Origin: Strigamia acuminata
Taxonomy: Eukaryota
Reading direction: 5' to 3'
Length of the DNA stretch: 64,000 nt
Assembly: GCA_949358305.1 (NCBI GenBank)
Contig: OX442314.1
Location: forward strand, 26,908,001-26,972,000
Position numbers and translations under genes: made by a program. Under the pieces are notes generated by a model. It was not told the origin of the DNA, made no database searches, and saw only the letters and a program-made list of their open reading frames with translations. Of this stretch, positions 5,297 to 56,106 are shown piece after piece. Positions within the stretch are counted from its first letter, which is position 1, and every line of letters begins with the position of its first letter.

Positions 5297-8200
5297 CTAG
5301 TCGATAAATCAAATATTTTTTCACGTGTCATGCGACTGCTGATAACTTACCGGCATGAGATTGATTTGAATAACTTGTCTTGAAAGCATTTGTCGTGGCA
5401 TTGTATATATTCTTCTTCCTTTTCAATACATTTACGTGATTTCAAATTCAGTGAAATTTTCTGTAAGTATAGAGAATTGGTTAAATTACTCTTAAGTGTT
5501 CTTTTCATGTTATGCCTGTGACGATTCTACTTTTGGCTGAATAATTAGCCATTTAAGAGTGATAAATCGGTTTAAACAAGACATTACTACATCTAGTAAC
5601 AACCTAACCGAGATAAGCTACGGAAGTCTGTACAATGTGAATATGTGACCAAATATAATAACTTACGATTTTGTGCGATATAATTACATGTTTATTAACA
5701 TTACAACTGGGTTGAGGTTCTGGATAAGTGTAACGGCGGCTACACTGGTTGAGGATCCGGGCGATGCTGTTCGAGTGGTGCGGCTGACTTTGCGGCATCG
5801 TCACAGTTAGCGCTACGGAGACGTATTCGGTCCCGCAGCTCGGATATCTATTAATACGAAGAATCCTTCGTATTTGGTCGGGAATGTTCATTAGAATATT
5901 CCGTGTTCAAATCAACAAAGCATTATTAGTGTAATATAACAAATGAATTGTTATATTGTTATTCTATGGGCGGGGACAGTCACGACAGTCGAGGGGACCA
6001 TCGCGGGAGTTGTTGAGGCTCCATCCGCCAGCATGCCTTACGACGACAAGATCTCGTGATCAGGCGCCGGGTATTTGTTTTCTGCGTTAAGTCGCTTTCA
6101 GTGGTACCAACCACTGGGTAAACAGTTCCTGGGGGACTACCAGATCGGCATTACCAATACCCGAGTATTTGTTTAGCGCAAGGTATGAATGCAATTGCTC
6201 ACGGGCTACCAACCCGGTGCGTCATCTGTGAATAAGGCTTTTACCGACCTCAGACAAGTCTTGCCTACTTAACGGAAGGGCCAATGCACTGCATCGGAAC
6301 CCTGGGGATACGGTTTGCCCATATTTGTTAAACAGGTTCGACTTCCCGTATATGTGCTCTGGCAGAGCATCTGACCTATGATCGGAGAATCACGCAAATA
6401 GATGCGACTATCACCGATCATATAATTTGATATTTGTTTAACGGTGTTAATCAATCCCGTGCATGGACGATATACTATGCCACCGTACGAAATCTAACTG
6501 TCCCTTGGAACAGCAAGCTAGCGCTACGGGGCCATTTCATGTTGTTAACATGTCTACTGGAGTTAGCCTTCCCAGATATGCCCTACAACAAGCAATAACG
6601 TGATAGTAATAATACATATCCATTGAGAGCTGAGGAGGCCTGATGTGTCGATAGGAAAGTGAGATCAAGCGATAACAGCATTTCAACTACAGACAATATA
6701 AACGGCAACATATTATTTTACCCCCATTTTGACTAGTTTTTACCCCCAAAAGGGGGTTTATTTTTCCCCCCATCCAAACTCCCCCAAGTAAACTAAAGAG
6801 CCCCCCTAACTGTACTATCCCCTACTATTGTATTTTTCCCCCAACCAATTAACCCCCATTTATTTGTAAACGAACCCCCAAGAATTATTTATACAACCCC
6901 CTACGTTTCAAACACTTTCCCCATTGTTACGTCTTGGCTACGGTTAGATTTTGTAGTATATAAGTCGGTCTGGAAGAATCACATAGGGTAACCATAAAAC
7001 ACTGTTGCACAGTTGTAGTAACAATGGCACCTACTCGACTTGTAATTAACGATTCCGATACCGAATCCGATTCCGATAGTTGTGAGTACGAGCCGCCAAC
7101 CAAACGGAAGACTTTTGAGTGGACAAAAATTCGAACCTTTTCTACGGGTGAGGAAGCCAAAGAATACATCCGGAATGAGAAAATGTGGACTTACAAGCGG
7201 ACAGAGTTTTCCATCCTATTTGTGTCGCTGTTTGCAAATACGAGACGACAGACGACTTTGCGTTCCTTTTCCGTGGACATCATAAGTTGAAAGGGATGGT
7301 GAAATGTTGGTCTTTGGAAAGGCACATGGAATCTGTCAATGTCAAGAAGTTTGCTCTTACTCCAACGGTTACCTTACAGCACTACACCGACGGTTACAAC
7401 TGGAAACGAACAAAACCTAGCGTGATTGTCCGTGTACAAGGTAATGTTAAGTCTTACTATGTCACCCCTGGTGGACAACCAAACTTAACAGACACCAGTG
7501 TAAAGAAAGCGTGGGCGCCCAGCTAAAGCGAAGAGGGCCTTGTGTACGCAGTGAGAAGATATTGGGATTACGTGGGGGGTACTTTAGAAATTATTGGGGG
7601 TAAAATTGGTTGGGGGGCAAACACATTACTAGGGGGAAATAAAGTTTGGGGCGGTTATTTAGTTTACACGGGGGGGTTTGGTTGGGGGAAAATTTTATTC
7701 CACTTAGCGGCCAAAATTTAGTCAAAATGGGGGTGGTTTAAATCGGACCCAATATAAACATATTCAGAATCAAGCCAAGGGGGTCGCGCTGGTGAAAACC
7801 AGAGCTTATATAGTTCTAGAGAACAATCAGATTGGTGACAGCCAATCAGATGCCTGAATCGATGGATTCGTGGATCACTAGTCCGGACCTAATATTGAAC
7901 TGGGTCCAGAAGAGTCCGATTGGTTCTCTTCAGAAGGTAAGTACAACAGAATATTGATTCGATAGAATCAATATCTCAAGTAAATAATACTTTGTGGAGT
8001 CGAATAAAATACTGTATATTTTATTCGCAACGTTTATATTAATTCTTAATATAACTCGTAACTTTATCGAGTTTAAACTGCGCGCGTTTAGATAAACAGC
8101 GCCATCTAGTGTGAACATTGGATAATACGGTTTTATAACCGTCACACATCCCCCGGTGACAAGCATAGAGTTTCCAACTGTTTAATTGTCATTCTTAATA

Positions 8201-11200: not shown

Positions 11201-14200
11201 AGTAAATCTTCGTATTTTTTAGTAATAAAAAATACCTGCATATCTCAAATAAAATGAATCAATGAGATAATCTATCGAAACTAATTAATTTCAATACAAG
11301 TTTATATTTTAATATAAATCTGACAAAAATGCGTGTTTATTATGTCCCCCGGTGTTGAGATTATAAATCACTACACGAATTTAGACATGTAAAATAAGAT
11401 AAACCTTGAGATTTTATCTCATTGTTGGTAAGGCTTCCTGAATACTGCCGTAATATTTCGCACAAAATTTTCATCTGAATATTTCGGATTTGGAACTCGC
11501 TCTCTTCGAGGACGCGTGCTAGTTTGTTCAACTAGTTTCTGGGGTTTACGTGGTTTGCGAGGAGGTTTCTTTAGAGGTTCTCCTCGTTCCACTGCTGCTT
11601 TCTTCTCTACAGCAATTAATCGCTGTCGATGTCTATGTTTAGACTTTTCTTGTACAGATCCTTTAGTCTGTACTTGAGGCGAGTCGGATAATTCCATCGG
11701 AACTTCCGTAGGAGTTTCAGGAATTATTTCCTCTTGATCGGGAGGTGACGGAAGATCATTACTTTCGTCCATCCATTTAGGATTTTCCTGATCAGTATTT
11801 GAAGCAGTTTTCTGCCCTATTTTCCGAGTTTCAATCGGATATAACGGCGTGTAAGGATATAAAGCCTTAATATTCACTGATTTTTCTATTAAACCATCAG
11901 CAAGTTTGCGTAATTTATACGCGCTACCTGGAAGAATTTCGACAATCTCCCAAGGACCATCCCGCTTCTCAGCAAGACCTGCGGAGATCTTTTTATCTGC
12001 GCACGAGAGAATGTGAGTTTGTTTCCAAACTAAATCTCCCATTTTGAATTCAACAATTGTGAATTTTTGTTCATGAATCTTACGATGTCTCTCGTAATTC
12101 AATTGAATTCTTCTGTGCATCTCTTGATGCGCTCTACGTAATATGTCAAGTAATTCTTGAACATATTTCTCAGGGTTATGCTTGTCAAATGGATTGGCAT
12201 GCCTGAGAATTCTCGGATCGAAAGGTAAGGTAACAATTCTCCCCGTATTCAGCAACATCGGTGTCGCATTCGTTGCAGCCGATTTATTATTACGAATTAC
12301 AAATGCAAATTCGTCTAAATATCGCGGCCATTGGGTGTGCACATCAGTGTAAATTGCCAATAAAATCTTAATGTCCCTGTTGGCTCGCTCTGTCGGGTTA
12401 GCCTGAGCATGATAAGTGCTCGTATGAGCCGGTCGGATATGATAAGTTTCGCAATATTCATTATAAATATCTGAAACGAATTGTTTCCCATTATCACTAA
12501 CAATCTTCTTTGGGTGACCCCAACGATTTGCAACAGATCTTAATTCTTGAACGCAATTAGCGCTCGTGGCTTTGGTTAAAGCTTTAATCTCTACAAATTT
12601 AGTACAATTGTCAATTATGACGAAGACGTACTGATTTTGGGATCTCCCAGCTGGTTTTGGCCCCATTAAGTCCATATTAATATGTTCCCAAGGGTTGGTC
12701 ATGTTATGAGGTACATAAGGACCTGCACGCTTTTTCTGCTGATCCGGTTTGTATTGACTACAATGTGGGCAGCTTTTAACGCAATTTCTTACGCTTCGGC
12801 TCATTCCGGGCCAATAATATATCAATCGAATTTTCTCGAGAGTTTTACTCATGCCTGCGTGGCCGCTCAAAGGGTGACCATGACAGGCGAAAAGCACTCG
12901 CTTTATGAGTGACCTGGGAACAACTGCTTTGAAGCCATTACCAGAGTCATTGAGCTCTTCTTCAAACGAAGGGTTAAAGAAAATGATCATTTGATCGCCG
13001 TCATCTTCCTTTTTGTCCAAACAATAGTTTCTAACTTGGTTTTTCTATTCTTTTATTTCCGATTTCGGAATTCCAACAATTCTGTCGAATAAAAGATACT
13101 CTTGAATGCGTTTTCATTCAGTGTCGACTAACTGCGCGTCAATTATTTCCCTTCTTGTAGGTGGGACTTCTTTTATCACATCTGTGAGAGCACTATACAA
13201 AGTTTCTTGTATCTCCTCCCCCTCCCTTTCTTCAGAATATTCTTTAGAATTTTCTGAAAAATGGACACAAACATTTGCTAAATATTCTGACTTTCCTGGA
13301 GCACGATTCAAAGAAATCGAAGGATTGCCGTCCCATTCTGGCCAGTACTGATTTATTTCGATTGGTTCCACATGATCACGAAGAGGAATGTCTTCCTCTC
13401 CTAATGGAGCTCTCGAGAGTGCGTCTGCAACTTGGTTACAAGCACCCTTTCGAAATACAATCTTAAAGGCACCACATTGGATTCTTAAGGCCCATCGGCC
13501 AAATTTTCCCGATGGTTCAGGCGTTCGCATAAGCCATTTTAATGCTTCAGCATCTGACTCGAGTGTAAAAGTACCATATTCTAAATACGGTTTAAAACGA
13601 TCAATAGCCCACACGACTGCTAGGCATTCGAGTTCTGGCGTTGTGTAACGCTTCTCCGCTCCTCTCAATACTCTGCTTGCATAGGCTACAGGTCTGGCTG
13701 CCGTGCCAGTTTTCTTTTTGTCTTTATCCAAAAGATCAACATCTTGGCAGATGACAGCTCCTAAGCCTTCGTGAGATGCGTCAGTCATGACTACGAAAGG
13801 TTTGGACATGTCCGGTTTATGCAGACAATTGTCATTACAAAGTAGTGCTTTAATTTTATTAAAAGCTTCAGTTTGAGTATCTCCCCATTCAAATGGAGTT
13901 TTCTCATTCATCATACATGTGTATGGTGCAGCAATGGCTCCGTGATTAGGAACGAACTTCCTGAAGAAGTTTGTCATTCCATGAAACTGTTGAATGTCTT
14001 TAGCACATGTCGGAGTCGGAAATTTCATAATTGCAGAAATTTTATCGGGATCTCCATATAAACCGTCAGGTTTAATCCAATGTCCTAAGAACTTAAATTC
14101 TGTTCTTCCAAAACGAGACTTCGCTTTGTTAATCGTCATATTAGCTTGGTTAAGCTTTTCCAACACGTCTCTAACATGAATGAGATGTTCATCCCAAGTA

Positions 14201-17200
14201 TTTGAATAGACAATTACGTCGTCTAAATAAACTAACGCGTAGTTTTGCAATGCTGAGCCTAAAACGCCTTCCATCAATCGTTGGAAAGTGCAAGGAGCAT
14301 TACAAAGTCCAAATGGCATTCGCACAAATTGGTAAGGGCCATTCGGTGTGTAAAATGCCGTTTTTGGACGATCTTCTTTACACATCTCGACTTGATACCT
14401 TTGACAAGGTCAATGGATGTGAAATATCTACCTGGTCCAGTATTATGCAATAGCAGGTCTATACTAGGCATCTGAATCACATCGAGTTCGGTGATTGCAT
14501 TCAACCACCTGTAGTCGATACACATTCTGTACGTACCATCAGGTTTCGCAACAATTACAGGATGGCTAATGAATGGCCCAGTGGCCTTTTCAATTAATCC
14601 ATCTTGTTCTAGTTCAGCAACTAATTTGGACATAATGGCTCTCTTGGCCGGATTGTACATACGGTACTGCATTCTGGGCAATGAATGCCCTTCTTTGAAT
14701 TTAATACGATGTTGAGTAACATTCGTACATCCAACTTGGTCACGAAATACATTAGATACTGCATTGACCACTTCTCGAAGCGCTAGGCGCTGTTCAGGAG
14801 TGCAATCACTACCTTCAACTAACTTCTCATCCCATTCTAAAACGGGTGCATCAGATAATTCAGTTGAATCAGCGACTGACGCAAGTTCTTCTAAATACTC
14901 GAAAGTAATTCGATTTAGAGGTGCCATTGCAAAATTATCTTCTTCCGACACATAAGGGGCGGACCAAGTAGGTTTATCAGCACAAGAGAACTCTTGGAGA
15001 TGTGGATGTGTACTAATCTTTTGTCGACGCATGAAATTGTGTCCAAGTATTAATCCACAGACTCGTTTTGCTAAAACTATGAAATTCATCGGCGTGAATT
15101 CATCAGCCCACTGTACGCACAAAGTTATTTGTCCGACTGGTTTGTGTGCTACGCCTACAGCATTAACCAACATGTTTCTGGATGCTTCTTGCAAAAATTC
15201 AGGCAGAGCTTGAGTTTCTGACAAAAGCTGTTCCCCAATATAACATTGAGAAGCTCCTGTGTCCATGAGCGCATTGTAGGTGAGCCCACCAATTGTGACT
15301 TTCATTCGAGGATCGTCTTTATTATTACCCAAAGTAATATTGTGCAAATTATTGCCTCCTATGACTCGGTTGAGTCGTCAAAGTCTACAAAATTTCTTCG
15401 TGTAACATTTATGTGGAAACAACGTCAAAGTCTTGAATTGCTTCGTCATCTTTTGTAGATTTTCATCTACCCCTCCGCTATGACTAGTGGCTTCTTCAAA
15501 AAACGTAGTTTCCACGTCCATAAACAACGAATCCGACATAGCATCAGCTATTTCTGGGGGCTGAATGAATCCTTCATCCCCCGGATCTAGTTTTTTGCAC
15601 TAGAATCAGTTGAATCGTTAGATTCGGGTTTAGCCAATTGTTTGACTATCTCAGCTAATTGATTAGTGAGTGTCGACTGCAATTTATTCTCAAAATTGTT
15701 AAATTTGGAATCAAGTTTCGCATCCAGTGTTGCATCCAACACTGGACACATCTGTTCACTCGAATCCAAAGTAAGGGACTTGGCGTTATTCTTAGGTTGC
15801 GAACGAGTGTCCGGTTTCCTAGGTGGGAAAACGACTGGATCGATTACTCTTACTCCATTGGCTGTACGGCTGTACAGCCCTTTTTTCTTCGTAATGGCAT
15901 TATAAATGTCCAAAAAAGGAAGTTCGTCTAAACCTTGCGTGTGCAAGAGAAGATCGTTGGCGGGAGTAATACTTCCCAAAAATATACTCGCAGCTCCCTG
16001 AGAGTTAAGGTTATCTTGTAATAACCATAGTTGGTAAAACTTATGTGTATAATCATACAAATTCTCAGTGTCGAGTTGTCTCAACTTAGTTAATTGGGTT
16101 GTTCGTTCCAAACATGTGGCAACAAACCTCCCTCTGAACGCTTTTTCAAAAGTGTCCCAATCATTAAAGTCATCTCGTCTCTCTTGAAACCAACTATATG
16201 CGATGTCGGTTAAGTAACCAGCCACGCCTTTTACTAACATTTCATCGAGTGAAATATTTCGCAGAAACGCAACGTTTCGAATTATACTGAGAAATCGCTC
16301 GCTTTCTTCAGTTTTACCCGAAAATACAGGTATGTCTGGGGGTTTCAAACTTATAGCTTGGGGTGTTGCAGATGTGGAATTTTTTTCCTAATTGTGCTAA
16401 TTTATGCATGTTCAATGCAATAGTAGCTAAGTCGTTCGCGGACATCCCAAAACTACTAGTTGGTCGCGAATTATCATTCGTTGATCCATTATTAGAATGA
16501 CTCGAATTATTTTGACTAGAGCCGTTAAAATTGTTGGGGTTGAAATTATTCGACCCTCCTTGATTTTGTCTACCTTGATGGCCAAAATTCGAATGATTAT
16601 TCGGTCCACCCTGGTTGCCAAAGTTTGAATGATTATTCGATCCACTGGGATTTTGTCTTCTTTGGTTACCAAAGTTGGAATGATTATTCGCTCCACCTTG
16701 ATTTCCAAAGTTTGAATGATTATTCGAATTTCCCTGATAACCTTGGTTCGAAAAATTATTCGACTGGTTCTGATTGCCAGGTTGTGAATAGTTATTCCAC
16801 TGGCCTTGATTACCGGAACTTGAACAGTTATTCGGATTATTTAAGTTATTTAAGTTCGGCTGAACTGGATAACTTCCTTGTATTAAGGGCAATTGGTTTG
16901 GAATATTATTATTTCCAGAAAAAGGATTCAAACGATTGTTTGGATCAACTACCCCTCTTAATTGAGAACTTAAATCGTTATTTAAACCATGAATGGGTTC
17001 TGCAACAAGATTCGGACAACTGTTGGCTCCATTCGGAAAACCAGGATTTGGGTTTCTATTATTATTAAGACCCATAAATCTTCTTCTATGAGAAGCAACA
17101 AGTTGATTATTCAATCGCCGATAAAACGCTTGTTCAAAACTGCCGGGTGTAGGATTCTGTTGATCCCAACGAGATTTCCGGTTGGTCGTCGGAGGTCCTG

Positions 17201-20200
17201 TCGTTTTCTGTCGATACCGAGTGATCGGAGTCGACAGATTCAAACCAGGATCTGTCGGTCCCTGATTACGTGGAGTCTGTGATCTAGAACTAGAATGCTC
17301 CGACGGGTCTCGATGTGTGTTAACAAAATCCAAAACTTCGGCCATTGTCCCAAATTGAATTGGATTCAAACAATAATCCCGACAAATGAAAAGTTCAGCT
17401 GGACCTAAATGTGATCCATCTAATGGACGATTCATTTCCTCCACGGGGGCAGGATCAGTTAATTCCACAATAGGATCGATAATGGCGACTGGGTCAGTCG
17501 GTTCAATTGAAACATTATTATCGTCCACGTGGTTTTCCACGACATTCACACTTTCCGTTTCATCTGGAACGGATACAAGTCCAGCTAAATTAATTCCACC
17601 GGTCAAACACGTTCTTTCCTTACCACGGGTATTCATCGAATGCTGGTTACTAGTCATCTTTAATCGAAAATCTAAAAATTCACAAATCAACGAAGAAGTC
17701 ACAAGCGATCTGGAGGGTTGCAAACGAAGCAATGGTTTCACTGGGTCGTTTTGGGTTTCAAATACCTCTGCAAACCTCTCCGATTGGTCGAACTTCAAAC
17801 GTTAGTCTCACGAGATTTTAATCTTGTCTGTGATTGATGGATTTCACCATTTTTCGCGGACCCATGATCTTGTCAGATTTCAAAATTATGACGTAGTCAC
17901 AAAATAAAAATGGACGATCATCCAAATTCACCGCAAAAAGTATTACTTATTTCCATAATAAAATCTTATTTATTAATAATTTGAATTTCGCTGAAATTTC
18001 GTATGATAAGAGCACGTGAAACCTTTTAGACTACTACGGCTTTGCTGTAAAGCATTAGTTGCTAGGCAACACAACAAACGAGAATTTCTTCGCCAACATT
18101 TGAATGAATTTTTCACTCGTAGAATTTTGATTTCAATGTCTCGAAATCTTGATTTTGACCGAACATTTTAATGTAGAATCAAGTATGTAAATAGAATAAA
18201 CTCTTTGAAATAAAAATATAACTTTTAATTCCTTCGAAAATGTCAATTTCCTTGTATTTTATTCACGCGAATAAAGTTAGGTTTAACTTGAAATCTCAAG
18301 TAATTATATAGTTATTAAAAAAATTAACAAACTACAAATACCTGCCGGAATTCTTTTTAGAATTCCTGATAAAACTTTGAACTTCTCGTATTAGGCCCAA
18401 CCACGTGGTTTCTCGAATCGACGACGGCGAATCGACGTTTCACGGGCGGACTTAACAACGACAAGTTCGGGCAAGATTTTCCAATTCTCGTGGTCTGATC
18501 ATTAGGCCTGACCACGCGGTAGAAATTATTATTTTTGTTAAAACATACAATTTCTTCGGCGGAAAATCGGAATAAAAGTGAATTACACTGTTTATCTTGT
18601 GAAACACTTGAAACAGAATGAAATATATTAGACACGAATATAAATTTCATTCGAAACTTATTTTTACACACAAAAATCACCGTAAAAGTTACACTATTCG
18701 AATTCACAATAGACACAAAACTTCAAATATTTTATTTAAAATTTGGACAGCCTATCTCGGTAGAACCTCCACTTGTGACGATTCTACTTTTGGCTGAATA
18801 ATTAGCCATTTAAGAGTGATAAATCGGTTTAAACAAGACATTACTACATCTAGTAACAACCTAACCGAGATAAGCTACGGAAGTCTGTACAACGTGAATA
18901 TGTGACCAAATATAATAACTTACGATTTTGTGCGATATAATTACATGTTTATTAACATTACAACTGGGTTGAGGTTCTGGATAAGTGTAACGGCGGCTAC
19001 ACTGGTTGAGGATCCGGGCGATGCTGTTCGAGTGGTGCGGCTGACTTTGCGGCATCGTCACAGTTAGCGCTACGGAGACGTATTCGGTCCCGCAGCTCGG
19101 ATATCTATTAACACGAAGAATCCTTCGTATTTGGTCGGGAATGTTCATTAGAATATTCCGTGTTCAAATCAACAAAGCATTATTGGTGTAATATAACAAA
19201 TGAATTGTTATATTGTTATTCTATGGGCGGGGACAGTCACGACAGTCGAGGGGACCATCGCGGGAGTTGTTGAGGCTCCATCCGCCAGCATGCCTTACGA
19301 CGACAAGATCTCGTGATCAGGCGCCGGGTATTTGTTTTCTGCGTTAAGTCGCTTTCAGTGGTACCAACCACTGGGTAAACAGTTCCTGGGGGACTACCAG
19401 ATCGGCATTACCAATACCCGAGTATTTGTTTAGCGCAAGGTATGAATGCAATTGCTCATGGGCTACCAACCCGGTGCGTCGCCTGTGAATAAGGCTTTTA
19501 CCGACCTTAGACAAGTCTTGCCTACTTAACGGAAGGGCCAATGCACTGCATCGGAACCCTGGGGATACGGTTTGCCCATATTTGTTAAACAGGTTCGACT
19601 TCCCGTATATGTGCTCTGGCAGAGCATCTGACCTATGATCGGAGAATCGCGCAAATAGATGCGACTATCACCGATCATATAATTTGATATTTGTTTAACG
19701 GTGTTAATCAATCCCGTGCATGGACGATATACTATGCCACCGTACGAAATCTAACTGTCCCTTGGAACAGCAAGCTAGTGCTACGGGGCCATTTCATGTT
19801 GTTAACATGTCTACTGGAGTTAGCCTTCCCAGATATGCCCTACAACAAGCAATAATGTGATAGTAATAATACATATCCATTGAGAGCTGAGGAGGCCTGA
19901 TGTGTCGATAGGAAAGTGAGATCAAGCGATAACAGCATTTCAACTACAGACAATATAAACATATTCAGAATCAAGCCAAGGGGGTCGCGCTGGTGAAAAC
20001 CAGAGCTTATATAGTTCTAGAGAACAATCAGATTGGTGACAGCCAATCAGATGCCTGAATCGATGGATTCGTGGATCACTAGTCCGGACCTAATATTGAA
20101 CTGGGTCCAGAAGAGTCCGATTGGTTCTCTTCAGAAGGTAAGTACAACAGAATATTGATTCGATAGAATCAATATCTCAAGTAAATAATACTTTGTGGAG

Positions 20201-23200
20201 TCGAATAAAATACTGTATATTTTATTCGCAACGTTTATATTAATTCTTAATATAACTCGTAACTTTATCGAGTTTAAACTGCGCGCGTTTAGATAAACAG
20301 CGCCATCTAGTGTGAACATTGGATAATACGGTTTTATAACCGTCACATGCCATTTTACATTACAACAAGTAGTTGAACATTAATTTAATTTACAGCTACT
20401 GTATTCAGGCTTTTTTGGGAGGTGCAACATAATATGAGTAAAAAATTTGGCGGGGTAATGTATCCTCTTAGTTTATTCTTGGATAATACCATGTTCACAC
20501 AACTCGATTCCACGGATTTGAATTGGAATTCATTAAATAATGTCAGCAGTCTGTAGCATTCCATTGTTGCTACTAAAACCCGGTTTGGTTTGATTGAATC
20601 ACATTTTGGTGTCAACACAACTCCATCTAAGTAAATATTGGAACTGTTCAGTTGGATCAGATCAGATCTAGCCAAACTCGATCCATTGGTTTGAACATGA
20701 TATAAGATTTAGCCTCGGAATCCAATCCAAACAGGAAGCACGAGAGATTCTGGTTTTTGTTAATAATAAAATCATAATATCAAGATATTTAGATTGTTGC
20801 CTAATCATGGTGTTGTAATTTTGGGATTAATCTATAAAAAATGGAAATTATTTGTCATATAAGTATAATATATTTTACTTCGAAAGATGATATTTGCAGT
20901 ATTGACATGGTAGACATAATGATGTTCCGTCGACTTGTAAGAATAGATTGGATTTTAGCTCCAGGTGGACGAAGGTACAACTGCAAAATTAAATAATAAT
21001 AAAAAAAACTTGATGCTACCCAATAATTTAAAACGATAATTTCATTATTTATACAGCATGTAGTAATGTGAGTGCGGAAAGGCATCATATAGTATACGGT
21101 AGATCGAGGAGAAACACATTATGGCGTACCAAGAAGTCAATGGGCCCATTAGCGAGTTGGGTTTGATGGGCCCTTTATCACAGATGTAGCTTACACACCA
21201 GTAAGATTTTTCGGTACTCACAGGATCACTTTAAAACCTTCATAGGCCCTTCATAGGCATATGTGTGAAATTTTGACAGTTTCTTTTGCGAATCTTTTGT
21301 ATTAATCTAGTAAGTAAAATAAACGTCTACCGGCTCTGAACAAAACGCAGGGTACACCCAAAATGGGGTACCCAATTTGGGTACCCAAGTGCAACGAAAT
21401 TTATCTATTTAAAAATAAAAAGTTGCACTTTTCTTTAAGATTTGTTATATTTTGACATCATTTAAGTCATGTAGAAAAATGATAACATTGATTGGGAATT
21501 ATTTCTTCCACAAATATAACTGATTCGTTTTTTTAAGATAAATCATTCCTCCTTTTTGGTTTTACAAAACCAGGAGGAGTTACTCAATCAACCAGAAAAA
21601 AATATCAACTGTGTTTGGATCATAACAGGATGTCAGAAATAATGGTAAAGTTTTTCTTTCTTTTTTAAATGATTTTGATGATTTTTTGAAAGTGTTTTAA
21701 TAATTTTATGTTTAATTTTGATAATTTTTAGTTTTATTTTGATAATTTTTAGTTTTATTTTGATAATTTTTAGTTTTATTTTGATAATTTTTAGTTTTAT
21801 TTTGATAATTTTTAGTTTTATTTTGATAATTTTTAGTTTTATTTTGATAATTTTTAGTTTTATTTTGATAATTTTTAGTTTAATTTGGATAATTTTGTGT
21901 TTAATTTGGATAATTTTATGTCTTGTTAGTCTGTTGACCACTTCTGGGTCCCGTAGCTCCACCAAGGGCCGATTATTGAAAAGTAAAGTGACCGTTGGTC
22001 ATCCCACGATCTCAATACATGGTAATGTTTATGATCGTTGATACTAATGGGACAAGGGCTGGCAGTTTTGGAAGTGACTGCCACAACAGATTTAGTCTGT
22101 TTTCAATCACAGTGGGCATAATAAAAATTAAATTGAATTCTGAAAATTTGTAAAAAATTTGATTAATCATTTCAGGAAATTTTGGGTACCCAAATTGGGT
22201 ACCCCATTTTGGGTGTACCCTGCGTTTTGTTCAGAGCCACGTCTACCCCCCTTCGAATTCCTGCTAGCATGAAATCCTGAGTTGTGACTCGTTCGAATCG
22301 GGTTGTTTCGATTTAACCAAGTTTTGCAAAAGAGCGTAATCATTGACGGTGGGTCGTCGATATTCGTAATCGTCGACGATTTAACCCGAGCTCATACTTT
22401 TGTTGCGGTAAAAAACCCTTCTGTTATCTTACCTGCCATAATCCATCAGAACAGTCATTACTCTTTCCTTTTATAAGAGCAATAAAGAATGCAGATGCAG
22501 CTCCAGCGTACTTTAGAGGCTCTAAAACAAAATAAAATGGATCTTTAATTCTTCATTTTATATTATTTTTATAACTTTTTCTGTACCGATGGTAAATTCC
22601 AAGCATGTTCCTGAATGCAGTTTTAAGTCATTGGTAATGTACGTTACATTTAACTCGAATACCTAGAATAATGTGAACAGCAGCATTAATTAAAATCAAC
22701 TGATCCTGAAATAGATTGCATAAACAAAAAAGCAAAAAAAAATCATATTCTGCCTCCAACTGCAGTGGTTTTGGAACTTGGATGCATACTGTAGCTGAAA
22801 CTGACAAAATTTAAATTTTTCCACTAACGTTAATTTGTGAGAGTGGACGGACACCATTCAGGCACGGGAATGCCCGTGGTCACAGCTATGTTCAGTTGGC
22901 CCATGGTTGATTGCTCAGGGTACTGGGACTGGCGTACCGGCCGAGTCTCTGAGTATCACCATGGTGAACAAGAGTGGAGCAGAACCGCTAGGTGTTAACC
23001 AGAGCTGTTCCCACAAGACTCTCAGCTCCAACAGGATGTTGGACCTTATATAGTCCACTCTTGCACCATGGGTCCGAGAGTACCTTTCCTATTGGTTGAG
23101 GGACCACTGACCGGATATGACGTCATCCTGGTCACTGCCCCTAACCCATCAACGCCACCTGGTTGGACTGGGCCATGCGGGAATGGTGTTGCAGTGGCCG

Positions 23201-26200
23201 GTTATCGGTCACAAGTTCATTAACTTTCAACACTTTTTAGAGCATGTGAATTAAAATCCTTCAGGTTCAGTTATTCAGTTTATGGTTCCAATAAGCAATA
23301 ACAATTGGCACACGGAAAGACAAATAAACGTGAATGCCACTTACCTTTGGAACAAAGTTCATTGCGATTTTATTCAATTTAGGCTTTTGATATCTCCATA
23401 AATTTTTGAGCGATGGGTTCTTATCACTGTTCATTAGATCAATGAAATGAATTTTGCATGGATCTTTCATAATCTTCTTTGCGTATCGTTCTCTGTATGT
23501 GGTCATTAGTATGCCATCTTTGCAGGCAATTATATTAGGCATGTAAATTGTATCGTTTTCTTTAACTTCAACTACGACTTTGATTGGTTCGCTGTAGTAT
23601 AGCTGTATTTTCGTTGCAGTTAAATATACGGCAATTATGGTATTTGTCAATAACACAATTAAACATACGAAACGACCAATCGATGGCATTTTATGTGAAG
23701 TATCGTGGCTTGTTTTAGACATTACTTTGTCATGTATCTTCACTATTTTACTTTTAAGGCTTGTGTTTGATTGACGAAGAGGCTGAGAATTGTATCTTCT
23801 AATTTTCTCGTGCAGTCGCTTAATCAATGCTTGTCCTATTGCTACCAAGGATAACAATGATAATCCCAATGAAAATCCCAAATTTCCGCCAAAGTCTATT
23901 AGCAATGCGATTATGTCGTAGTCAGGCACTTCAGTCATGACTATGAATGTTGTATCAGGCTGTTTCATTTCGACGACAACTGTACTCTCGTCGGGTGATC
24001 TCGCTGAGGTTACTTCCGATATGTATATTTGCTTTGTGCATGGTCTCAAGCAACCACAATCCAATGTCGCTTTTGTTGATAATACAGTTTTGAATGTGTT
24101 GCCATGAATTTTAGCAACAATGGTTTTATCTTTTACCTCGCTGCAATCCTTAATTTCATTGTTAAAATCCATATACGGTAGTCTGAAATTTAAAAAGACT
24201 TTATTTATATCAGCAATCAGAAGAAAATGTGTGTTTTTAGATTTTAAAGTTAGATTTCAAGTCTGATAAACTTGATTATATAGTTAATATTTTGACTAAC
24301 CGGCATTCAGGTTTCTCTTTCTGAGCCAAACATTCTTCGTAACACTTTATGCTATCTTTTACGTTTGAGTTGCACCCAGGTTGTTGTGATGGTAGGAAAT
24401 TGTACTGGAAATTAAAATTTTAGTTACTTTTTATTCTTGTACAATCGAAGTCCAACAATTTTGTATAGCACACAAAGGCAATGTCTAGTGCCAGGGTAAA
24501 ATGACTTCTTCTAAATCATCCTACTCTTCTCAATTTAGCAACAAATTTTTGGTGACTGAGAAACTTTCTTGCAAGAAGAACATGTCAACCAGGATAGTGT
24601 TCGATTTATTAACAAATGAGGGTTTTATCTTTAGTTTGAAATGATAACGCGAGCATGTGCCCTTAATTAGAGTATAAGAACGGAAAAAAATAACAAAAAA
24701 GTAAATAAATAACTAGATTTTTCCCTGTCAATAGACATTTGCAAACATATATGTAGATACCTGTCGCGAATGATAATTCACTAACAACATATTGCCCATT
24801 TCCGCTGGTGCTGCGTATTCAAAAGTCATTAGAGGATTTACGGCCATTATCTATCAAAAACAAATTTAATTTAGCAATAAATAATAGGCGCATTCACAAA
24901 TGCAAGCTGATCTTGCAGTTAAACAGGTTCTGCTGTTTAAATGTTGTGCGCATGCACACTGCGGCTGAAAACTGACTAAATTAGCCGATATTTTTTACGT
25001 TAGATTGGGATAATCAGTTTAAACGGCAGTTTAAATATGTTGTTTAAGATTTAGTTTAGTCTAAATGATTATAAACATGTGCAGTAATCTAATCATGTCC
25101 ATGTTAGGGTTCAACCGTAATACCCAGCTTTGGAGAGCATACTCTAGCCAGTTTGACCTGAGCACAGAGCTGTAACGTCCTGCAGACGTTATGCACAGAG
25201 CTGTCAACGATCGAGATGATATGATCGGCGACGAAACGATCGGCGATGATACGATCGGCGATGATACGATCGGCAACGAAACGATCAGCGACGAAACATC
25301 GGCGACGAAATAACCTGACAACAAACTAATACCACAACACACAAGAAACAGAAAACAGGATCATTTCGACGCCAATTTAGGCGACGAAATGATCGGCGAC
25401 GAAACGTGGGCGACGAAATGATTTAACTCCGTTGAACCGTAATACCTGTAACATAACGAGATAAATCATGGCCGTGTCGTTATGTTGAGACTCGGGCTAA
25501 AACCTGGCTCTATTGTTTATTCGTTAGTCACGCCACCACTTGTGGCAGCACCGTACAACAACATGTTACATCTCCCTTTTTTTTAAAAAACAAATGAGTA
25601 AATACTAATAATAAACATGAGAGATTATAAAACAAAATCAGATTAGATATGACTAGCAATGAGTTATTTAACTTACTAAAACAAACAAACACACAACTTT
25701 AAATACGAGTATTAGTATTATAATTATAAGTTCAATTTGTCCGGTGGTCGGCTGATCCGTCCGCTGCGAGTCACCGTCACTCTTGGTCCGCACACGATCG
25801 GTGATGATTGCGTCGCCGGCTGCGATGATTGTTCTGCCGCAACCGGAACGCCTGGTGGATCTGGAATCGCCTCTGATTGATGGGCCTCCAGGTTAGGCCT
25901 GGACTGTGAACGACTGCTCTGCGATGTGACAGGTAACTTCGCCTTCGTCTGCTTGAGATGCGACGTGTTCCGCCTCATCACTCGTCCATCAGGAAACTCC
26001 ACCTTGAACGATCTCGGTCCCTCAGCACCTTCTTTTATTCTTCCTCCTTCCCAATGCCGATGATTGGTTCGCACCCTGACCTCCATGTTTGGCTCAACCG
26101 GGACAGCTGGCTTCGCTGTGCGATCCGCATACAGTTTCTGTCGCTGCCGCTCATCTTGCAACGCCGCCGGTACGTCCTTCTCCACTTTTGGTTGCAATAA

Positions 26201-29200
26201 TTGTCGGCCACCGGTCAAATGGGATCGCGTTCTTCTGCTGAACAACCGTTGTGCCGGAGAACCCAAACTCGCGCTTCTTGGAGTGTTTCTCCAATTCAGA
26301 AATGCCAATTGCAAATCTGTTCCGTCTTTATTGCATTTCTGAATTATATTCTTTACGCTTTGAACCGCCCTTTCTGCTAATCCATTGGCCCTTGGGAACC
26401 GCGGCGACGACGTTTGATGTAGAAATCCCCACTCTTTGGCGAATTGTGCAAACTCACGCGACGAGTATTGAGGACCATTGTCGCTTTCAACCACTTCTGG
26501 AATCCCATGAACCCCGAACCAGCGTTTCATCTTGTCTATTATTTCGCTAGACACTGTCGTATTTAATTCCGTCACCTCCGAAAAACCTGAATAACTGTCC
26601 GTGACTACTAAATAGTCTTGTCCTTTTATTTCAAAAAGATCCGTTGCCACTCTTTCCCACGGCAATTCCGGGACCGGCTTATTCATGATTGGTTCCTGAT
26701 CATTATCGCGTTGTGTGCTTTGGCATACACTGCATTTTTGCACAAATTCTTAAATTTCCGTGCTCATACCCAACCAAAATACTGCTTCTCGGGCTCGGCG
26801 AATTGACGACTGTATACCCAGATGCCCCAAATGAATATACTTCAAATAGTGTGGTTGCAGCTCTCTAGGAATTATTGGTCTGCTATTCTTGAACAATATT
26901 CCATTATATACTGCGATTTCATCTCGGAAACTCCAAAATGGCTTGACTGCCACTGGCGCCTCCTCTTTGCTTGCCGGCCAGCCCTTCAAAACAATTTCGA
27001 TCAATTGCTGACTCTCAAAATCCTCCTTAATTGCTTGTTGCAATTTTTCCATTGCCTCTCCCGTCATTGGCAACACAATGTGCACCTGCAACTCTTCGGG
27101 ATCTTCATCAGGCTTGACTGGCAGACAATCTCGGCTGAGTGCATCCGCCACCGGAATGTCCGTCCCTTTTTTGTAAATTATTTCTGGCCCGTAAGGTAAC
27201 AAATCAAAGAAAATTCTCTGCAAACGCGCCGGAGCTCGGTCTATGGTCTTCTTAGCAATGGCTTCCAGCGGCTTATGATCCGTCTCGACAATCAACTTCT
27301 TCCCATAGATGTAATCATGGAATTTGAAACACCCAAACCGAATAGCATACGCTTCCTTCTCTATTTGTGGGTATCTCTGTTGACACGACGTCAATGCCTG
27401 CGTCGCATAGCATACAGGTTTCCCATCTTGAAACAATGCCGCCCCCACCGCATGAGAACTGGCATCAACGGAAAGAACGACGTCCTTGTTGACATCATAA
27501 TATGCTAATACCGGTCTGGTCTTCAATGCCGCTTTTATCTGCATAACTGCCGACTCCTGATCGTGCGACCATTCCCAAGCAACCGCCTTCGGCAACAACT
27601 TGCGCAATGGTTCCGTCAACACCGAATAATTCGGCAAAAATTGCGCCAAGTACACCGTCATCCCTAAAAATCTTCTCAACTCGTCCTTGCACGATGGAGA
27701 TTTAAGCCTGTCGATCGCCTCGACCTTTTCGGGATCCGGTTTAATGCCGTCTTGCGTCAAGATATGGCCCAAAAATTTTATTTCTGTTGCCTCCAACACG
27801 CATTTTTCTTTGTTCAACCGCAACCCTTTTTCATAAATCCGTCGCAGTACCTTATTGACCAAACTCCTTAATTCGGCCAACGTTTCCGCAAACAAAAGTA
27901 CATCATCGATTGATACATCCGTGTTTGAAATCCCTTCTAGTATTTCTTCCATCATCTGCTGGAATACTTCAGGCGCGGAAATTAATCCGAACGGTAATCG
28001 AAGACATCGGTATCGCCCCCACGGCGTATTCACTGTCAAATAATTCGCCGTCCGCTTAGTAACCTTGGATTGCCAATACCCGTGCTTTAAATCCAGTTTC
28101 GCAAAATATTTCGCATTCTTAACTCGAGCCTTAATGTTTTCAAATGTCTTTAGCGGATAATGCCGTCTTTTCACGTGCTTGTTGACATCCGTCAGGTCGA
28201 TGCACAGCCGAATTTTCTTTCCGCGTTGTACAATGACTAACGGACTCACCGCTGGTGTTGGTTCCGTCACTGGCTCAATTACTTCCATTTTCACCATGCG
28301 GTCCAACTCTGCTTTGACTCGATCTTTTAATGTATGTGGAATTTTGCGCGGTGGATGTATTGTGAACTGCGTTGTCTCATCTATATCAACGTCATAAATA
28401 AAGTCCTTTGCGCATCCAAGTCCTTCAAACACTTGCTTCTTAATTTCCGCATCCGTTAACTCCGGATTTATCGTGTCCACACGCGTAACTAAATTCAATT
28501 TGCTGCACGTGTTTTTACCGAAAATTGCTGGCACTTTTTCATCAACAACTTGAAATGCCACTCGCGCCCGCATTTCCTTGACTTTACAATTAATGACAAC
28601 TTCACCCAGTACGGCCATATGATGTCCCGTGAACGACTTCAACTGCTTTGTGCGCGATGCATCTAATTGCAGTCCAAGCTTCCGTACTACAGCTGCTGAT
28701 ATGACATTGCATCTTGCCCCGGAATCCAATTTTATGTCCAGTTGCAACTTGTTATTTAGCTTAACTCGCTCATACCAGTCCTCATTGTCATCAATGCTGT
28801 CAGTAATAATTCTGCGTACCACCATGGTCCCGTACAATTCGTCATCATCATCCTCGTCCTCTGTCTCGGCTGCTATTGCGCCCACTTCCTTTTTTGTGGC
28901 TTCCTTTTTTGTTGAATTCGCCCTTTCTGCCTGCTTCATGCGACATGCTACCGCAAAATGCCCTTTCTTGTGACATTTATTACATTTCTGGTTAAATGCT
29001 GGGCATTTTCCATACTCATGCCCTCTGTTGCATCGATTGCAGGTTTTGGCGCCACCTGTGGACGATTTTTGGAACTGCGCCGGTCGCTTACCGGGTTTTA
29101 TAAAGTCCACTTTAATTTCTTCTGTTTCTTTTATTGTTTTTACTTGCTTTTCCGCACTCTCTGCTGCTCTAGCAATTTGAATTGCCTTTAGCACTGTTAA

Positions 29201-32200
29201 TCCGGTTTCTTCCAACAATCGCTGGCGCACCACTTCACTTCGAATGCCGCACACAATTTTGTCTCGCAACAGCCCATCTTCCAGCGCTGCAAATGCGCAT
29301 TTGGCCATTTTCGTCCGTGCATCGGTTAAAAATTCGTCAAACGATTGTCCTTCTTTTTGTATAAGGCGGAAGAACTCATACCTGCAAAACGTTTCGCTTT
29401 CTATAGGCTCAAAATGCGTTTTGAACTTGTTTTTCACCGCAGTTATGTCCTTTTTTTCTGCTTCAGTCAGCGCCAACGTCTTGAAAATTCGTCTGGCTTC
29501 TGGCCCAACACAAGTCATTAATGCTGCTACTTGAATTTCTGCCGATTGACCCACGAGACTCGCCGCCTTTGCGTACCAGTCGTACGCGTCGATCCACTCC
29601 TCCCATGCGGTCGCCATGCCGTCGCTGGAAATTATGAGCGGTTTCGGCTGTCGTATGCCTGCTGGTGGCCGTACCTGCTCTGCAGCCATCCTGCCTGCTG
29701 GTCCTAATCGCAGTTTCAACCAGATTTGACTGACTAATTGTCCGTTTTTTCACTTCTGACACCATGTAACATAACGAGATAAATCATGGCCGTGTCGTTA
29801 TGTTGAGACTCGGGCTAAAACCTGGCTCTATTGTTTATTCGTTAGTCACGCCACCACTTGTGGCAGCACCGTACAACAACATGTTACAATACCCAGCTTT
29901 GGAGAGCATACTCTAGCGAGTTTGACCTGATCTGGGGATATAATTGGCTGGTTCATTTGATACCGTGCCAGAAAAGTTGAATTTCTGCTCGTTTTATCCA
30001 GCATTGCCAGAAAATTTTTATTATCCAGCATTTGCCATACATTTTACTCAACATAGGATGAACTAGCCATTTGGAAATGAATAGTATGCATTCATACTAC
30101 GGTATTTTCATACTATGAAAGAAAAAGTTCTTTCTTCCGCAAATATTGTGTAAATTATTGCGTGTATTTTTAATTTGACAATTGATTGGTCGGTATTCAT
30201 GTACAAAAGCAATATTTCAATGGGAAGAGTTTATTTTTCTGTAATTCGCCTGGTACGCTTTAAAGGAAAGTAAAGTAAACACCGTGTATTCTCACCATCA
30301 GACCTGGTTTCTCGCAGCTTCCATTTTTCTGAAACTGCCACATCATAGAGAATCCCTCAGCCATGGATAAATCTAAATAATAATGTAATAATGTAATAAT
30401 GCAATAATGTAACTTGAAACTTATTTACTGTATCCAGTTCAGAAAAAAAATCCTTTTCTCACGAAATGTTATTGGAGATATTTTTAATTTGATGCTAGAT
30501 TGGCAGGAAATGACACATTCTATTGTTAATGATAATGAAGCATCGTAATACAGCATTTGTTATCAAAGTGTAATTTCTGAACCAACAATGCTAGACTAAC
30601 AATGTCAATCGACAATATTGTCTAGCATTGTTGATTAAGAATTTACAACTTGGAAGACGATGTCGCAACAATGCAACAAAAACAACAGATACCATATGAG
30701 GAAAGGACTTTTTTCTAGGGTCCGATTTAAACCACCCCCATTTTGGGGGGAAAAATAAACCCCCTTTTGGGGGTAAAAACTAGTCAAAATGGGGGTAAAA
30801 TAATATGTTGCCTTTTTTCTACTTTGCAGAGCAGTTTTTATTACCTGTTTTGAAGATTAAAGCAGCTCCCATCATTGTGTTTTTTTCACTGATCTCTATA
30901 TTGGAATTAGTTGTTACAATTTTGCCATTATTTTTAGTCATTTTAAAAATAGATTTCTTGTACTAAAAAAGAAATTTCTGAACTAAATACACTGGAAAAA
31001 AATATGGCTTTACAAATTGTAAATGTTCCAAAAGTTAATGTGGAAATGTGAGCTTTACAGTTTTTGTAAAGTTTTTCTTGTACTAAAAAAAGAAATTTCT
31101 AACTTAAATAAAATAAAGGAATAAAGCAAATCAGAAAGGAAATGAAGTGCTGAACTGTACTTTTACACATTGGCTGAAAGCACATTTACAAACTGTAGAC
31201 GCGCTAAGAATCCTTTGTTATATTTCGAATGTCCGAATCGAATAAAAGGATCACATGTTTAACGGAACACAAAATAAAATAACACGTCTTTACTCTTTGG
31301 AATGAATTTTACAACAAACGAAAAACATTCACATAACGTGCCTTCAACATTACAAACTTGTTCAACATGCAAAACCAATGATAATTTAACAATCTTGTCC
31401 TGATTTCTTGGCCAGGGATGACAAATGCATTAATAGTACAAACAGCGTTGAAATTTTTAATTTATCGTCTGTGTGGGTGTTTGTTTGTTTTGCTTAGCTT
31501 TGTTTTGCTTTGAATCCTCCAATGTGGCCTGGGAAGCCGGGATGTTTGACACCCCTGCTTTAGTTCATTGATTTATAATTTAAGTTTGTTTAATTTCTGT
31601 GTTGCGCCTAGAAATAGCATTGTTTGATAGCATTGTCTTTGTTTCCAATATTTAAAGTGGGGGCGCTTATTCATTGAGATCAAAGCTGTTGGTTTGTGTT
31701 GTAATGCTCCTTAATCATAGATGGCGCCAAAAGCCAGTTTTTATGTGAATTCATTACTCTCGTTTTGTAACAATTCCATGTAGAGATATCCTGCACAGGG
31801 GCGCCGGGCAGAGAGGGGCGCTGGGCAGTGAGGGGCGCTGGGCACAGAGGGGCGCTGGGCACAGAGAGGCGCTGGGCAGAGAAGAACTTCAGGCAGAGAG
31901 GGGCGCCGAACAGCGAGGGGTGCCGGGCAGAGATGGGTGCCAGGCGCCTCCTACAAAGAGTCTTCATGTGTGTTCAAATATAACCTGCACTTGTAGGCCC
32001 AATTAACCACATTGTTGATAGTGTGTAAAACACACGGGCTCCACAGGTCAGGGGGCGCCATTCCGGGTGACATTTTTTTTTAGTTCCGAAAATGCATTTT
32101 TAGTTCCAAAAATGCATTTTTATGTCCGAAAATGCATTTTTAGGTCCAAAATTTTTGGTTAAAATATATTTTTCACAAAAATGCTTACTGGTACTTCTTT

Positions 32201-35200
32201 TGGAGGGGGTGGGAGTGGGGTGCCGAAATAGTAAATCTAAAAATAATTTTTTTTTAATTACGACAAGGGGCAAGGGGCGCCTGATTTCTTTTAAGCCCAG
32301 GGCGCTGAAAAGTGTTAAGACGGCCCTGATCCTGCATAAAACCTGTGAATGTTTTCACTTGTAAACCTGGTTCACACTTGCGGATATGCTGCGGAATTGT
32401 TGCATCCGCGGTTTGCTACAATGAGCTTGTCGCGCTCAACTCTAACTGTCGCTAACTCGTGGTATGAGTCACTCTCTAATCTCGCAATACCGCTTTACTC
32501 AAGCGGTTACCCAAATAATGTGAAACGGCAAACAATGTAAAATGGTAAATATAATAAATGTATTTATTATATGGGAATTTACAGGTAAAAGGAATAAAAT
32601 ATGTAAGGGAATAAAGGTAAAAGGTTGGGGATGTGTGAAGTTGTCGGGAAACTGGTCGAGGTCGTCCTTTGTTGACGCTCTGGATCCAAGATGGCGTCCG
32701 CGTGGTAACGTGGTGTCGTCTTGGGCCGGCGTGGCAATGAATGGCGTCCTCGTCTCACGTTTCTTGTTCGGTCCTTCGGGCTCACGCTGGTCGGGCGCGA
32801 GTGAATGCCTAAAAGGTCTTACTTCTGGTCTGTTGTCTAGGTTTAGGGTTTTTTGTAGGTGTCCGGCGATCACACAGCGGCGGACTCTTCTGGCTCCCGG
32901 CGATCACACAGCGGCGGGAACGCTCGTCGTGGTTTTACTGCAGTTTAGGCTTGTGCGACCGTTTGTCTGCACAACTCGCTAAACTGGAGTGGTGTTTGCT
33001 GTTTCTAGCGGGTGTGCTAAAACAGCGCGGTAATCTTATCACGCAGGTTACTCTGCGGAGGTTAACACGAATCAAATGTACTCACGAAGAATATATCCTT
33101 TGTCCCTGGTCACTCCTAGTGCTTGACTTAGGCCTGATCGGTAGGACGGTAGATTTCTCGTGTGTTTCTTGTTTGATGGTTGTGTTGGTTCTGCCCGCTC
33201 AGTGCAAGGCACATTCCTTTGCACAAAGCGGGGTTGACAGGTGACCAGAATCACCCAATGGTGGGGTGGACGAGCCATCCCCACTCCCTCAGGGCAGACG
33301 CCTGTCCATTGACTAGATGTCAATGCACTGAGGGAAGGGAGACGCGCTTGCGGCTCCCCTTACACCCGAAACGAGGTCACGAGAGAAACTCTTCGTTGAC
33401 CCCGGTCCAGTCGGGTCACAACACTTCCCCCTCCGAGCTCAGACCGTGGGGCTGAGCGATCACTTCTTTCCTGGGGGACCCGACACTGAGTCCGTCACCT
33501 GGGCGTAACTCACTCCAGGGACAGGCGGTTGAGTGCCGGGTGGCGCGGGTAGATCGCCTACTAGCGCCGAGGACCGATCTCGGGGGTCCTCATGCTCCGT
33601 AATGAAGCATAATGCATGGCCGTCAACTGGCTCATGCGGGGCACGCGTCCTCTCGTGTAACCAAACGCTCGGGATGTAGGCGGAGAAGCCGGTGTTCGTA
33701 TGCCGGATGGCATTGGCTTCCGCTGGCGTCACTGGCGCACGGTGGGCTCTCAGCAACCTCTGGTGGAAGATGAGGTCTTTAGTCTTCCGGATCTGGTTGT
33801 GAAGCCAGATGAAGACCGATTTGCCTTTGTCCCGCTGCGCGAGGATAAACCTCCTGGTCGCCGTCGTCATCGAAAGATGGGGAAATTCTTCGATGATTCG
33901 CCCGTAATAATCTGGTGGAGGCGGTGCCGGCTGCGGCTTCTGGGTGGCCGCGGGAATCACGGCTTGTGTCGTTGTCGCCGCTTGGGCCGGTGGAGTCACG
34001 GGCGGGGTCGGCTTCGTTCGCTCGACGGACTTGACGGGTGGTGTTCGGCACAGCAAGCGCTTTGGTCTACCCGCCACTTCGAACAGGGCGGGTCCTTGCG
34101 GGGATATCTCCGCAGGCATCGGTGGCGGAATCGGAACTCCGCTCGTCGGCGAGATCATCATCTCCACATCCTCTGCCGATTCTTCCGTCTGGATGGTCAT
34201 GGCGCGTAGTTGTTGGGTAGGCGCCGCCGTCCAGGTGGCGGAGGTGTAACGAAACGCCGTGCTTCGCAACTTGTACCCCTCAAATTCGGGGTTTACCACA
34301 TCCCTGGTTAGCTCGTACCGAGTCAACACAGGGTCGGGCAGAATGGAGCTCCACTCTGCGAGGAGTGCACGGGGAACCTGTACACCCTCTCTGTCCACGA
34401 CAGACCATGCGGCCATCGCCTGACGCCCTTCTCCGAAGAGTGCTGGGGTTAGCAGCTGCATCATGACCTTGGTCAATGATAGCTGTAGGCTGCGACGATT
34501 CACTGGATTCGATCGCTCTGAATCCGCAGTGAAGGCACACGAGAGCTTACTCATCATCGCCGTTGCCCATTCGATGAAATATCGCTGGGCCTGATCCACA
34601 CCTCGCAAGGCGGGTGCGGAGACTCTTGGGTCTTCCATCACGAAGCGAAACGCTGAGAGCTCGGAGATAGTCGGGTTGGCGGCTTCTCTCGCGAGTCGCG
34701 CTTCTTCGTCTCGCCTCTCGAAGAACAGGGCCGAGGAACCGGGTCGGGGTCGGCTCGGCCTGTAAATGTCGGTCAAATTGGCTCGACATTCCTGCATAAT
34801 GCTCTGTCCAACGGGGAGAGGGACTGAGCGGTCGGTGTGTAAATTCGGCGGATCGCTCGAATTCAACAACGACGGCGGCGGCAGGTTCGGAGGCGGCTGC
34901 GTCTTGGTCGGCAGCGTTGGCGTCGGCAGCGGTGGTGGTGGCGTCTCCGTCGTCTGCACCCCAGTCATTGCGACTTGGGGCGCCGGGAGAGGTTGTTCGG
35001 AGCCCGAGGGCTGCACGATGGCGGTTGGCATGCCATCGGGTCGTGGTCGCGAATTTATGTAGTCTGCGAGCCACCTTGCCACCTCGTGTGGGGTCACCTT
35101 TCCGTCGGTGACAACACCCATCTTCCTGGCGTGTTTCATCGCGGGATCGAAACGTGTCAGTTTCGTCCGCTTCATCTGCGTCAGAATCTCGCGAAGGTCC

Positions 35201-56072: not shown

Positions 56073-56106
56073 CTGAAATTTAAAAATTGTTTTTATTTAA
56101 ATCAGC

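Follow-up and report, generated by a model that had tools for sequence, protein, structure and literature searches.

Gene A, its tandem copy and the surrounding elements

The stretch of DNA analysed here (the window) comprises 64,000 nucleotides of the centipede Strigamia acuminata and contains two tandem copies, A and B, of a DEG/ENaC gene. Gene A consists of 11 exons on the minus strand, from 47,663 to 4,921, and its span of 42.7 kb is explained by three LTR elements lodged in introns 1, 3 and 9. Exon ends were placed by hand from sequence and homology. When the exons were joined by script from their coordinates, the product was 2463 nt and 820 aa long with no internal stops and with GT-AG ends at all ten introns, which bears out the 11-exon join of about 820 aa proposed by the first-pass annotation.

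All exons of gene A are read from the minus strand. Exon 1 (47181..47663) encodes the N-terminus, TM1 of unit 1 and the start of the finger (aa 1-161) and contains a second ATG at 47630. It is followed by exon 2 (30845..30962, aa 162-200), which has 92% amino acid identity with the corresponding exon of paralogue B, exon 3 (30296..30372), which shares its boundary column with exon 8, exon 4 (24761..24850), which is missing in paralogue B, and exon 5 (24301..24404), which carries the unit 1 thumb cysteines. The fusion exon, exon 6 (23345..24182, aa 291-570), encodes the end of the unit 1 thumb and TM2, a basic linker (approximately 23821-23674), and TM1 and the finger of unit 2. Exon 7 (22587..22662) contains the GxC motif of unit 2, a motif also found in the Strigamia relative P0001, while exons 8 (22433..22521) and 9 (20879..20980) are placed by the join. 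The thumb cysteines of unit 2 lie in exon 10 (5351..5460), and its TM2 and the stop in exon 11 (4921..5296).

The fusion exon measures 838 nt (24182-23345) and sits within a stop-to-stop open frame at 24256-23267 on the minus strand, with an AG acceptor and a GTAAGT donor. Pfam ASC (PF00858), run one by one on exons 1, 6 and 11, matched all three, the fusion exon in two separate stretches (E 5.9e-16). With a profile of the unit derived from 20 single-length relatives, two whole DEG/ENaC units were recovered in the gene A protein, at aa 22-423 (E 6e-50) and aa 432-817 (E 1e-53), and Kyte-Doolittle hydropathy, the only predictor applied, gave four peaks in the 820-aa join at aa 47-65, 393-411, 462-480 and 786-804. 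Frame, splice sites and domain matches thus agree on what had been read from the letters at first: an uninterrupted exon that joins TM2 of one subunit to TM1 of the next, with two ASC units and four transmembrane segments in one frame. By the same hydropathy measure each unit has the DEG/ENaC hallmark of two TM helices flanking a large ectodomain, and the gene departs from the DEG/ENaC rule of one two-TM subunit per polypeptide.

The linker is basic (11-12 K/R), as first described, but is 46-49 aa long depending on the boundaries chosen and not the ~55 aa originally given. Scanning of the linker found no GTRAG donor and no polyA hexamer, and its frame is open, so that the cryptic intron named earlier as a way in which the join could fail did not appear; nor do a stop, donor or polyA signal follow TM2 of unit 1. 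With the local base composition, the chance that a 49-codon linker is open is 0.024 and that 279 codons are open is 6e-10. Because the join falls within a single exon whose linker lacks a donor and a polyA signal, a gene-prediction artefact is ruled out for the window, as had been argued. A six-frame profile scan of the window for a third unit returned the known exons and weak matches only (E 0.1-5), which leaves no third-unit remnant upstream or downstream of gene A within that stretch. We regard the two-unit fused architecture of gene A at the DNA level as practically certain, and predict that this copy is probably translated as one chain.

Paralogue B (51722..64000, minus strand) is a tandem copy and likely a pseudogene. 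Its exon 1 is cut by the end of the window, exon 4 is absent, exon 11 is frameshifted by 1 nt immediately ahead of the last TM2, and the second TM1 contains an Arg. Its fusion exon (56072-55235) is nonetheless 838 nt long and open, as reported before, and A and B end at the same stop. The two copies differ at 102 of the 1506 exon bases compared. As B is both young and broken, it lends the junction weaker support than the first-pass annotation stated, and the covalent tandem of two DEG/ENaC units, which does hold at the DNA level, draws more on the joins of relatives and on the position trees described below. The broken state of B had been overlooked, as had the existence of a whole centipede subfamily with this join and of three-unit chains.

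Amino acid constraint on gene A is weak, as dN/dS between A and B is about 0.8 (0.82 when pooled, 0.95 for the fusion exon); all seven changes in the linker are non-synonymous. None of the 102 differences creates a stop, compared with 5.6 expected (P 0.004). The 28 variants listed in and beside the linker, from contigs of three sequencing runs, include no indels and no stops, although with about 1.3 stops expected the lack of stops adds little by itself. In five of the six two-unit chains checked, the stop falls 30-37 aa past the second TM2 Asp, which marks these as genuine ends of two-unit proteins. Since B is broken and three young LTR elements lie in the introns of A, the gene A copy may be silent. 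Three sequencing runs cover introns and show no splice joints, and therefore behave as DNA; a fourth run matches repeats only, and none of this bears on whether the gene is expressed. Summed contig depth, which is no copy number, suggests several further copies.

Two of the three LTR retrotransposons in gene A are in sense orientation. The element in intron 9 (5517..20347, minus strand) has a 4-bp target duplication, and one of its LTRs holds a 1-kb insert with inverted ends (~6704-7749). A solo-LTR-like copy, 80% identical to it, is found at 49514-51251, downstream of paralogue B. The intron 3 element (25447..29888, minus strand) has identical 124-bp LTRs and a 5-bp target duplication, and a single in-frame stop at ~26750 interrupts its long ORF. 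The element in intron 1 (32428..45863, entered without a strand) is 13.4 kb long, with 996-bp LTRs that are 100% identical, a 4-bp target duplication, and gag and pol on the plus strand. It also contains unexplained ORFs of 749 and 173 aa on the minus strand at 33460-36231, and the whole lies inside an older element whose inverted ends are at 32362-32421 and 45959-46026. A copia-type element lies between exons 3 and 5 of B (57000-61240), at the site of the missing exon 4. Intron 2 of both copies contains an imperfect palindrome of ~80 bp (30571-30651 and 61565-61645), and intron 6 of gene A has a 413-bp insert of a repeated element (22825-23239) that B lacks and that contigs from other copies pass over.

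Two-unit and three-unit relatives

A full HMMER search with the fusion exon found 74 proteins at 24-43% identity, the closest being 43% identical. The TM2-to-TM1 join is present in 28 of the 74. Twenty of these were looked up and belong to Strigamia maritima (16), Halocaridina (two), Petrolisthes (one) and a Logan protein (one); the remaining eight group with the Strigamia rows in the tree. The matches include 24 centipede-type joins, and all centipede relatives are automatic gene models. In the 21 centipede-type chains measured, which leave out four chains with near-identical units, the linker is 31-59 aa long and basic in every case. The S. maritima UniRef entries T1ITA9, T1JD34, T1ITL7, T1J963 and T1IPM9 share with gene A the order of the two units, the join, the basic linker and a position-specific TM2, and differ in being unnamed automatic predictions at most 43% identical to it.

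Tree tests used 38 of 74 units: those of nine genes with both halves, three Strigamia repeat units, nine decapod units and eight single-length proteins. These were fast searches with 3000 replicates on ~20%-identical sequences, with BRTNaC1 and PDPNaC1 outside the trees. The tree that scored best placed the first units in one clade and the second units in another. The alternative that every gene duplicated its unit independently was rejected (deltaL 126, p-AU about 0), as was an origin shared with the decapod fusion (p-AU 5e-6 and 3e-4), whereas a duplication private to gene A was rejected only marginally (p-AU 0.033 vs p-SH 0.26). In the free tree, support for the unit clades was low (SH-aLRT 39 and 76) and one second unit was misplaced. 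As judged from these sequences, the two-unit join is a trait of a centipede subfamily.

The two halves of gene A are identical at 59 of 351 positions (17%), and all five intron phases common to both agree (0,1,0,0,2), four of the five in the same alignment column. Five matching phases at only 17% identity therefore point to two old paralogues fused head to tail, whose ancestors would have been two adjacent six-exon genes. The first paralogue's last exon would have become continuous with the initial coding exon of its neighbour. The fusion would have happened once, in a centipede ancestor, after which the fused gene would have multiplied as a unit.

Three-unit chains occur as well. P0023, P0026 and P0071 are 1244-1289 aa long, contain three units by profile with three Pfam stretches each, and their units group by position in trees. 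The three-unit decapod proteins include KAK7013173.1 and KAK7028032.1 from Halocaridina, KAK4303610.1 from Petrolisthes and the Logan protein P0071. Position-specific TM2 motifs were observed in the three units of P0023 and P0026 (Halocaridina), P0071, P0077 and P0078 (Logan), and P0060, P0075 and P0079 (Petrolisthes), the middle unit of the Petrolisthes models being much reduced or incomplete. In the P0071 cluster, three proteins of 1268 aa come from contigs 4447-4553 nt long; a 3.8-kb frame leaves little room for introns on these, so we read them as transcripts or an intronless gene. The decapod chains resemble gene A in that DEG/ENaC units of the same broad clade are linked TM2-to-TM1, and differ in that their three units with six TM could supply every position of a trimer, and in a separate fusion origin. 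Neither a third unit, by the six-frame scan of the window, nor a common fusion origin was found for gene A. The decapod chains are candidate single-chain trimeric channels.

In Strigamia, P0004, P0005, P0010 and P0018 form a subfamily whose chains are made of near-identical units, three or more in each. P0004 overlaps P0005 at 76%, and the two combined show at least three such units. The UniRef entries T1IZL2 and T1IU28 represent the same architecture. This P0004-type subfamily is apparently a separate, younger triplication or a case of homogenisation.

Other searches added little. A word-based protein search, a method insensitive at this divergence, gave no matches to the fusion exon, and with two family alignments it gave one and two proteins, subject to the same insensitivity. 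An ESM Atlas search returned generic ASC clusters only. Of 139 pattern matches in a metagenome scan, two loci remained: L001, a single-unit gene, and L002, which has no join within its 1.7-kb contig. The L001 gene (1909-3486) is intronless and ASIC-like and lies in a eukaryotic contig, between genes that look nitrilase-like and EXTL-like by their motifs.

Pore residues and fold

All 13 first units and 25 of 27 single-length proteins have Gly three positions after the TM2 Asp (+3), compared with one of eight second units, where Ser (four) and Asn (three, including the second unit of gene A) are found instead; the rows compared are kin, and these counts are therefore not independent. P0031, one of the two exceptions among the single-length proteins, resembles a second unit split from its chain. 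At position +6, which lies four residues ahead of the GxS Gly, four of the eight second units have Ser and both units of gene A have Gly. This position matches Gly378 of PDPNaC1, the pore constriction of that channel (PMC12714832), and alphaS583/betaG525/gammaG537 of ENaC (PMC2229513). GxS itself is kept in TM2 of both gene A units, as G-L-S.

The HG motif is absent before either TM1 of the gene A protein. PDPNaC1 also lacks HG yet conducts (PMC12714832), and a missing HG therefore does not exclude DEG/ENaC membership. Ectodomain 1 has 11 Cys and ectodomain 2 has 12, and the thumb pattern is kept in both. The degenerin position of unit 1 is occupied by a bulky residue, and unit 1 has lost two usually conserved cysteines that unit 2 keeps (C511 and C590), which we take to be the partners of one disulfide.

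The best matches of the family profile among solved structures were BRTNaC1 (E 3e-43), a heat- and proton-gated channel of Scolopendra (PDB 8YMR), and PDPNaC1 (E 1e-39; PDB 9JF7), which were also the top fold matches. For fold comparison, the Strigamia two-unit homologue P0007 (791 aa) stood in for the gene A protein; its model reached pLDDT 78 and pTM 0.72 over 791 aa with 55 sequences, compared with pLDDT 46 with nine. Residues 51-379 of P0007 match PDPNaC1 and 423-772 match BRTNaC1, each with Z 20.7, rmsd 3.5-3.9 and 316-323 aligned, with the caveat that this is a homologue model and that AlphaFold has seen ASIC trimers. Several ASIC chains align with P0007 over ranges such as 46-775, covering only ~310 residues. 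Judging from the range ends only, this would fit a swapped ASIC TM2 end landing on TM2 of unit 2, that is, units placed as neighbouring protomers.

The gene A protein resembles BRTNaC1 and PDPNaC1 in its compact ectodomain of ~300 aa, and PDPNaC1 also in lacking a canonical HG, a feature stated for the latter. The two known channels differ in being single subunits of 421-431 aa with two TM that form homotrimers (PMC9974506 and PMC12714832), while gene A has two unlike units, ~20% identical to them, and a changed second pore motif. From these nearest characterised relatives only, which are antennal proton and heat sensors, we infer a possible sensory role for gene A, whose stimulus may be protons, heat or a chemical.

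Assembly and significance

The fused pair likely takes two neighbouring positions in a trimer, with a free single subunit completing the cation channel, a reading that we place slightly above even. The first-pass annotation had offered a free third subunit, cross-linked pairs of trimers and linker cleavage, and we rank the free third subunit first. The tether would fix the interface between unit 1 and unit 2 in a fast-diverging and probably sensory family, and the free subunit would produce an asymmetric 1:1:1 pore. The probable working analogue is the vertebrate ENaC beta-gamma pair with its 1:1:1 heterotrimer (PDB 9BTU, 9BLR, 6WTH), likewise a fixed pair with an exchangeable third and an asymmetric pore, whose dimers accept alpha, delta or beta as the third subunit (bioRxiv 2024.05.28.595834); vertebrate ENaC differs in its separate genes, the absence of a covalent link, its distant clade and its 8-12% identity. 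Engineered ASIC concatemers, joined head-to-tail via cytoplasmic termini with a fixed subunit order as in gene A, are functional (PMC4529235 and PMC10329638). Pairing with a free subunit is also favoured by the two-unit frame, the matching introns, the family-wide join, the position-specific units and pore motifs, and the presence in Strigamia of single-unit genes of the clade, P0045 and P0046. Against it, BRTNaC1 and PDPNaC1 function alone as homotrimers (PMC9974506 and PMC12714832), and ASIC dimers also conducted by themselves, cleavage products being present (PMC4529235).

Two-unit chains might instead assemble only with each other, with three chains forming a tethered pair of trimers (1+2+1 and 2+1+2), or two chains a single pore with a hanging fourth unit, which we consider rather unlikely. 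Such assembly would suit the excess of two-unit over single-unit models of the clade among the matches obtained, linkers whose 31-59 aa could reach a second pore, the ability of engineered ASIC1a dimers to conduct alone (PMC4529235) and the dimer pairs seen for ENaC beta-gamma (bioRxiv 2024.05.28.595834). However, in the P0007 model the TM2 helix runs to aa 408 and leaves ~14 residues before the next TM1. In three-unit chains, where neighbours must share one pore, the joins are similar or shorter (69-141 vs 84-112 residues in two-unit chains, counted from the Asp in TM2 until the following TM1 ends), and constant position-specific pore motifs suit one fixed stoichiometry better than two. Ordinary free subunits, produced by cleavage of the linker or by additional synthesis of unit 2 from an internal start, are very unlikely: topology places the linker in the cytoplasm, where lumenal convertases cannot act on it, the junction alignment has no conserved cleavage motif, and unit 1 lacks the signals needed to end after TM2. 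The linker is, on the other hand, basic and unconserved, and it contains a Met in 18 of 21 relatives, a small excess over the 13.5 expected; P0031 is a lone second unit beginning in linker-like sequence, unless it is a split annotation, and engineered concatemers do give fragments (PMC4529235 and PMC10329638). It is decidedly unlikely, finally, that the family architecture is real while the gene A copy is decaying, or that the pair is a non-conducting sensor or regulator. The broken B, the dN/dS of ~0.8, the three recent LTR insertions and the missing cysteines and bulky degenerin-position residue of unit 1 would accord with this, but the gene A frame and all 20 splice sites are intact, stops are below chance, and both TM2 keep GxS. 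The two lost cysteines are presumably partners of one disulfide, and we count their joint loss against decay or loss of conduction.

In the DEG/ENaC literature cited here (including PMC7067487, PMC5203786 and PMC9822975) there is one two-TM subunit per gene. A natural two-unit chain upsets the trimer's symmetry, so that either a partner subunit or tethered double pores must be assumed, alternatives that experiments can tell apart. Such chains, with two or three units and position-specific pore residues, are ready tools for an asymmetric ENaC-type pore. They make accessible the question of which pore position sets gating and selectivity, for which the engineered concatemers now needed fragment. 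Naturally fused channels are known in K2P, TPC and Nav/Cav; these are four-fold channels into which their units divide evenly, whereas two units do not divide a trimer. Somewhat tentatively, and at less than even confidence, we propose that at least three natural DEG/ENaC concatenations, comparable to those of K2P, TPC and Nav/Cav, arose in mandibulate arthropods. Centipedes would have gained a large repertoire of two-unit sensory receptors with an exchangeable free subunit, while whole trimers in a single chain would have arisen in decapods and, as an event of its own, in one subfamily of centipedes.

Searches of the openly accessible main-text literature found no description of natural two- or three-unit DEG/ENaC genes. 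The two-unit architecture can be seen in UniRef and NCBI as unnamed models and is undescribed in the literature covered. Three to five TM were predicted for 46 of 578 insect PPKs in PMC8438182, in passages that do not interpret them as fusions. Pipelines that look for ~450 aa with two TM may have broken up or discarded such genes, and the present chains point to an overlooked and expanded candidate sensory family in centipedes and crustaceans. The nearest insect matches form the P0028 cluster (Drosophila, ~431 aa), a conserved single-unit gene that we take to be ppk17.
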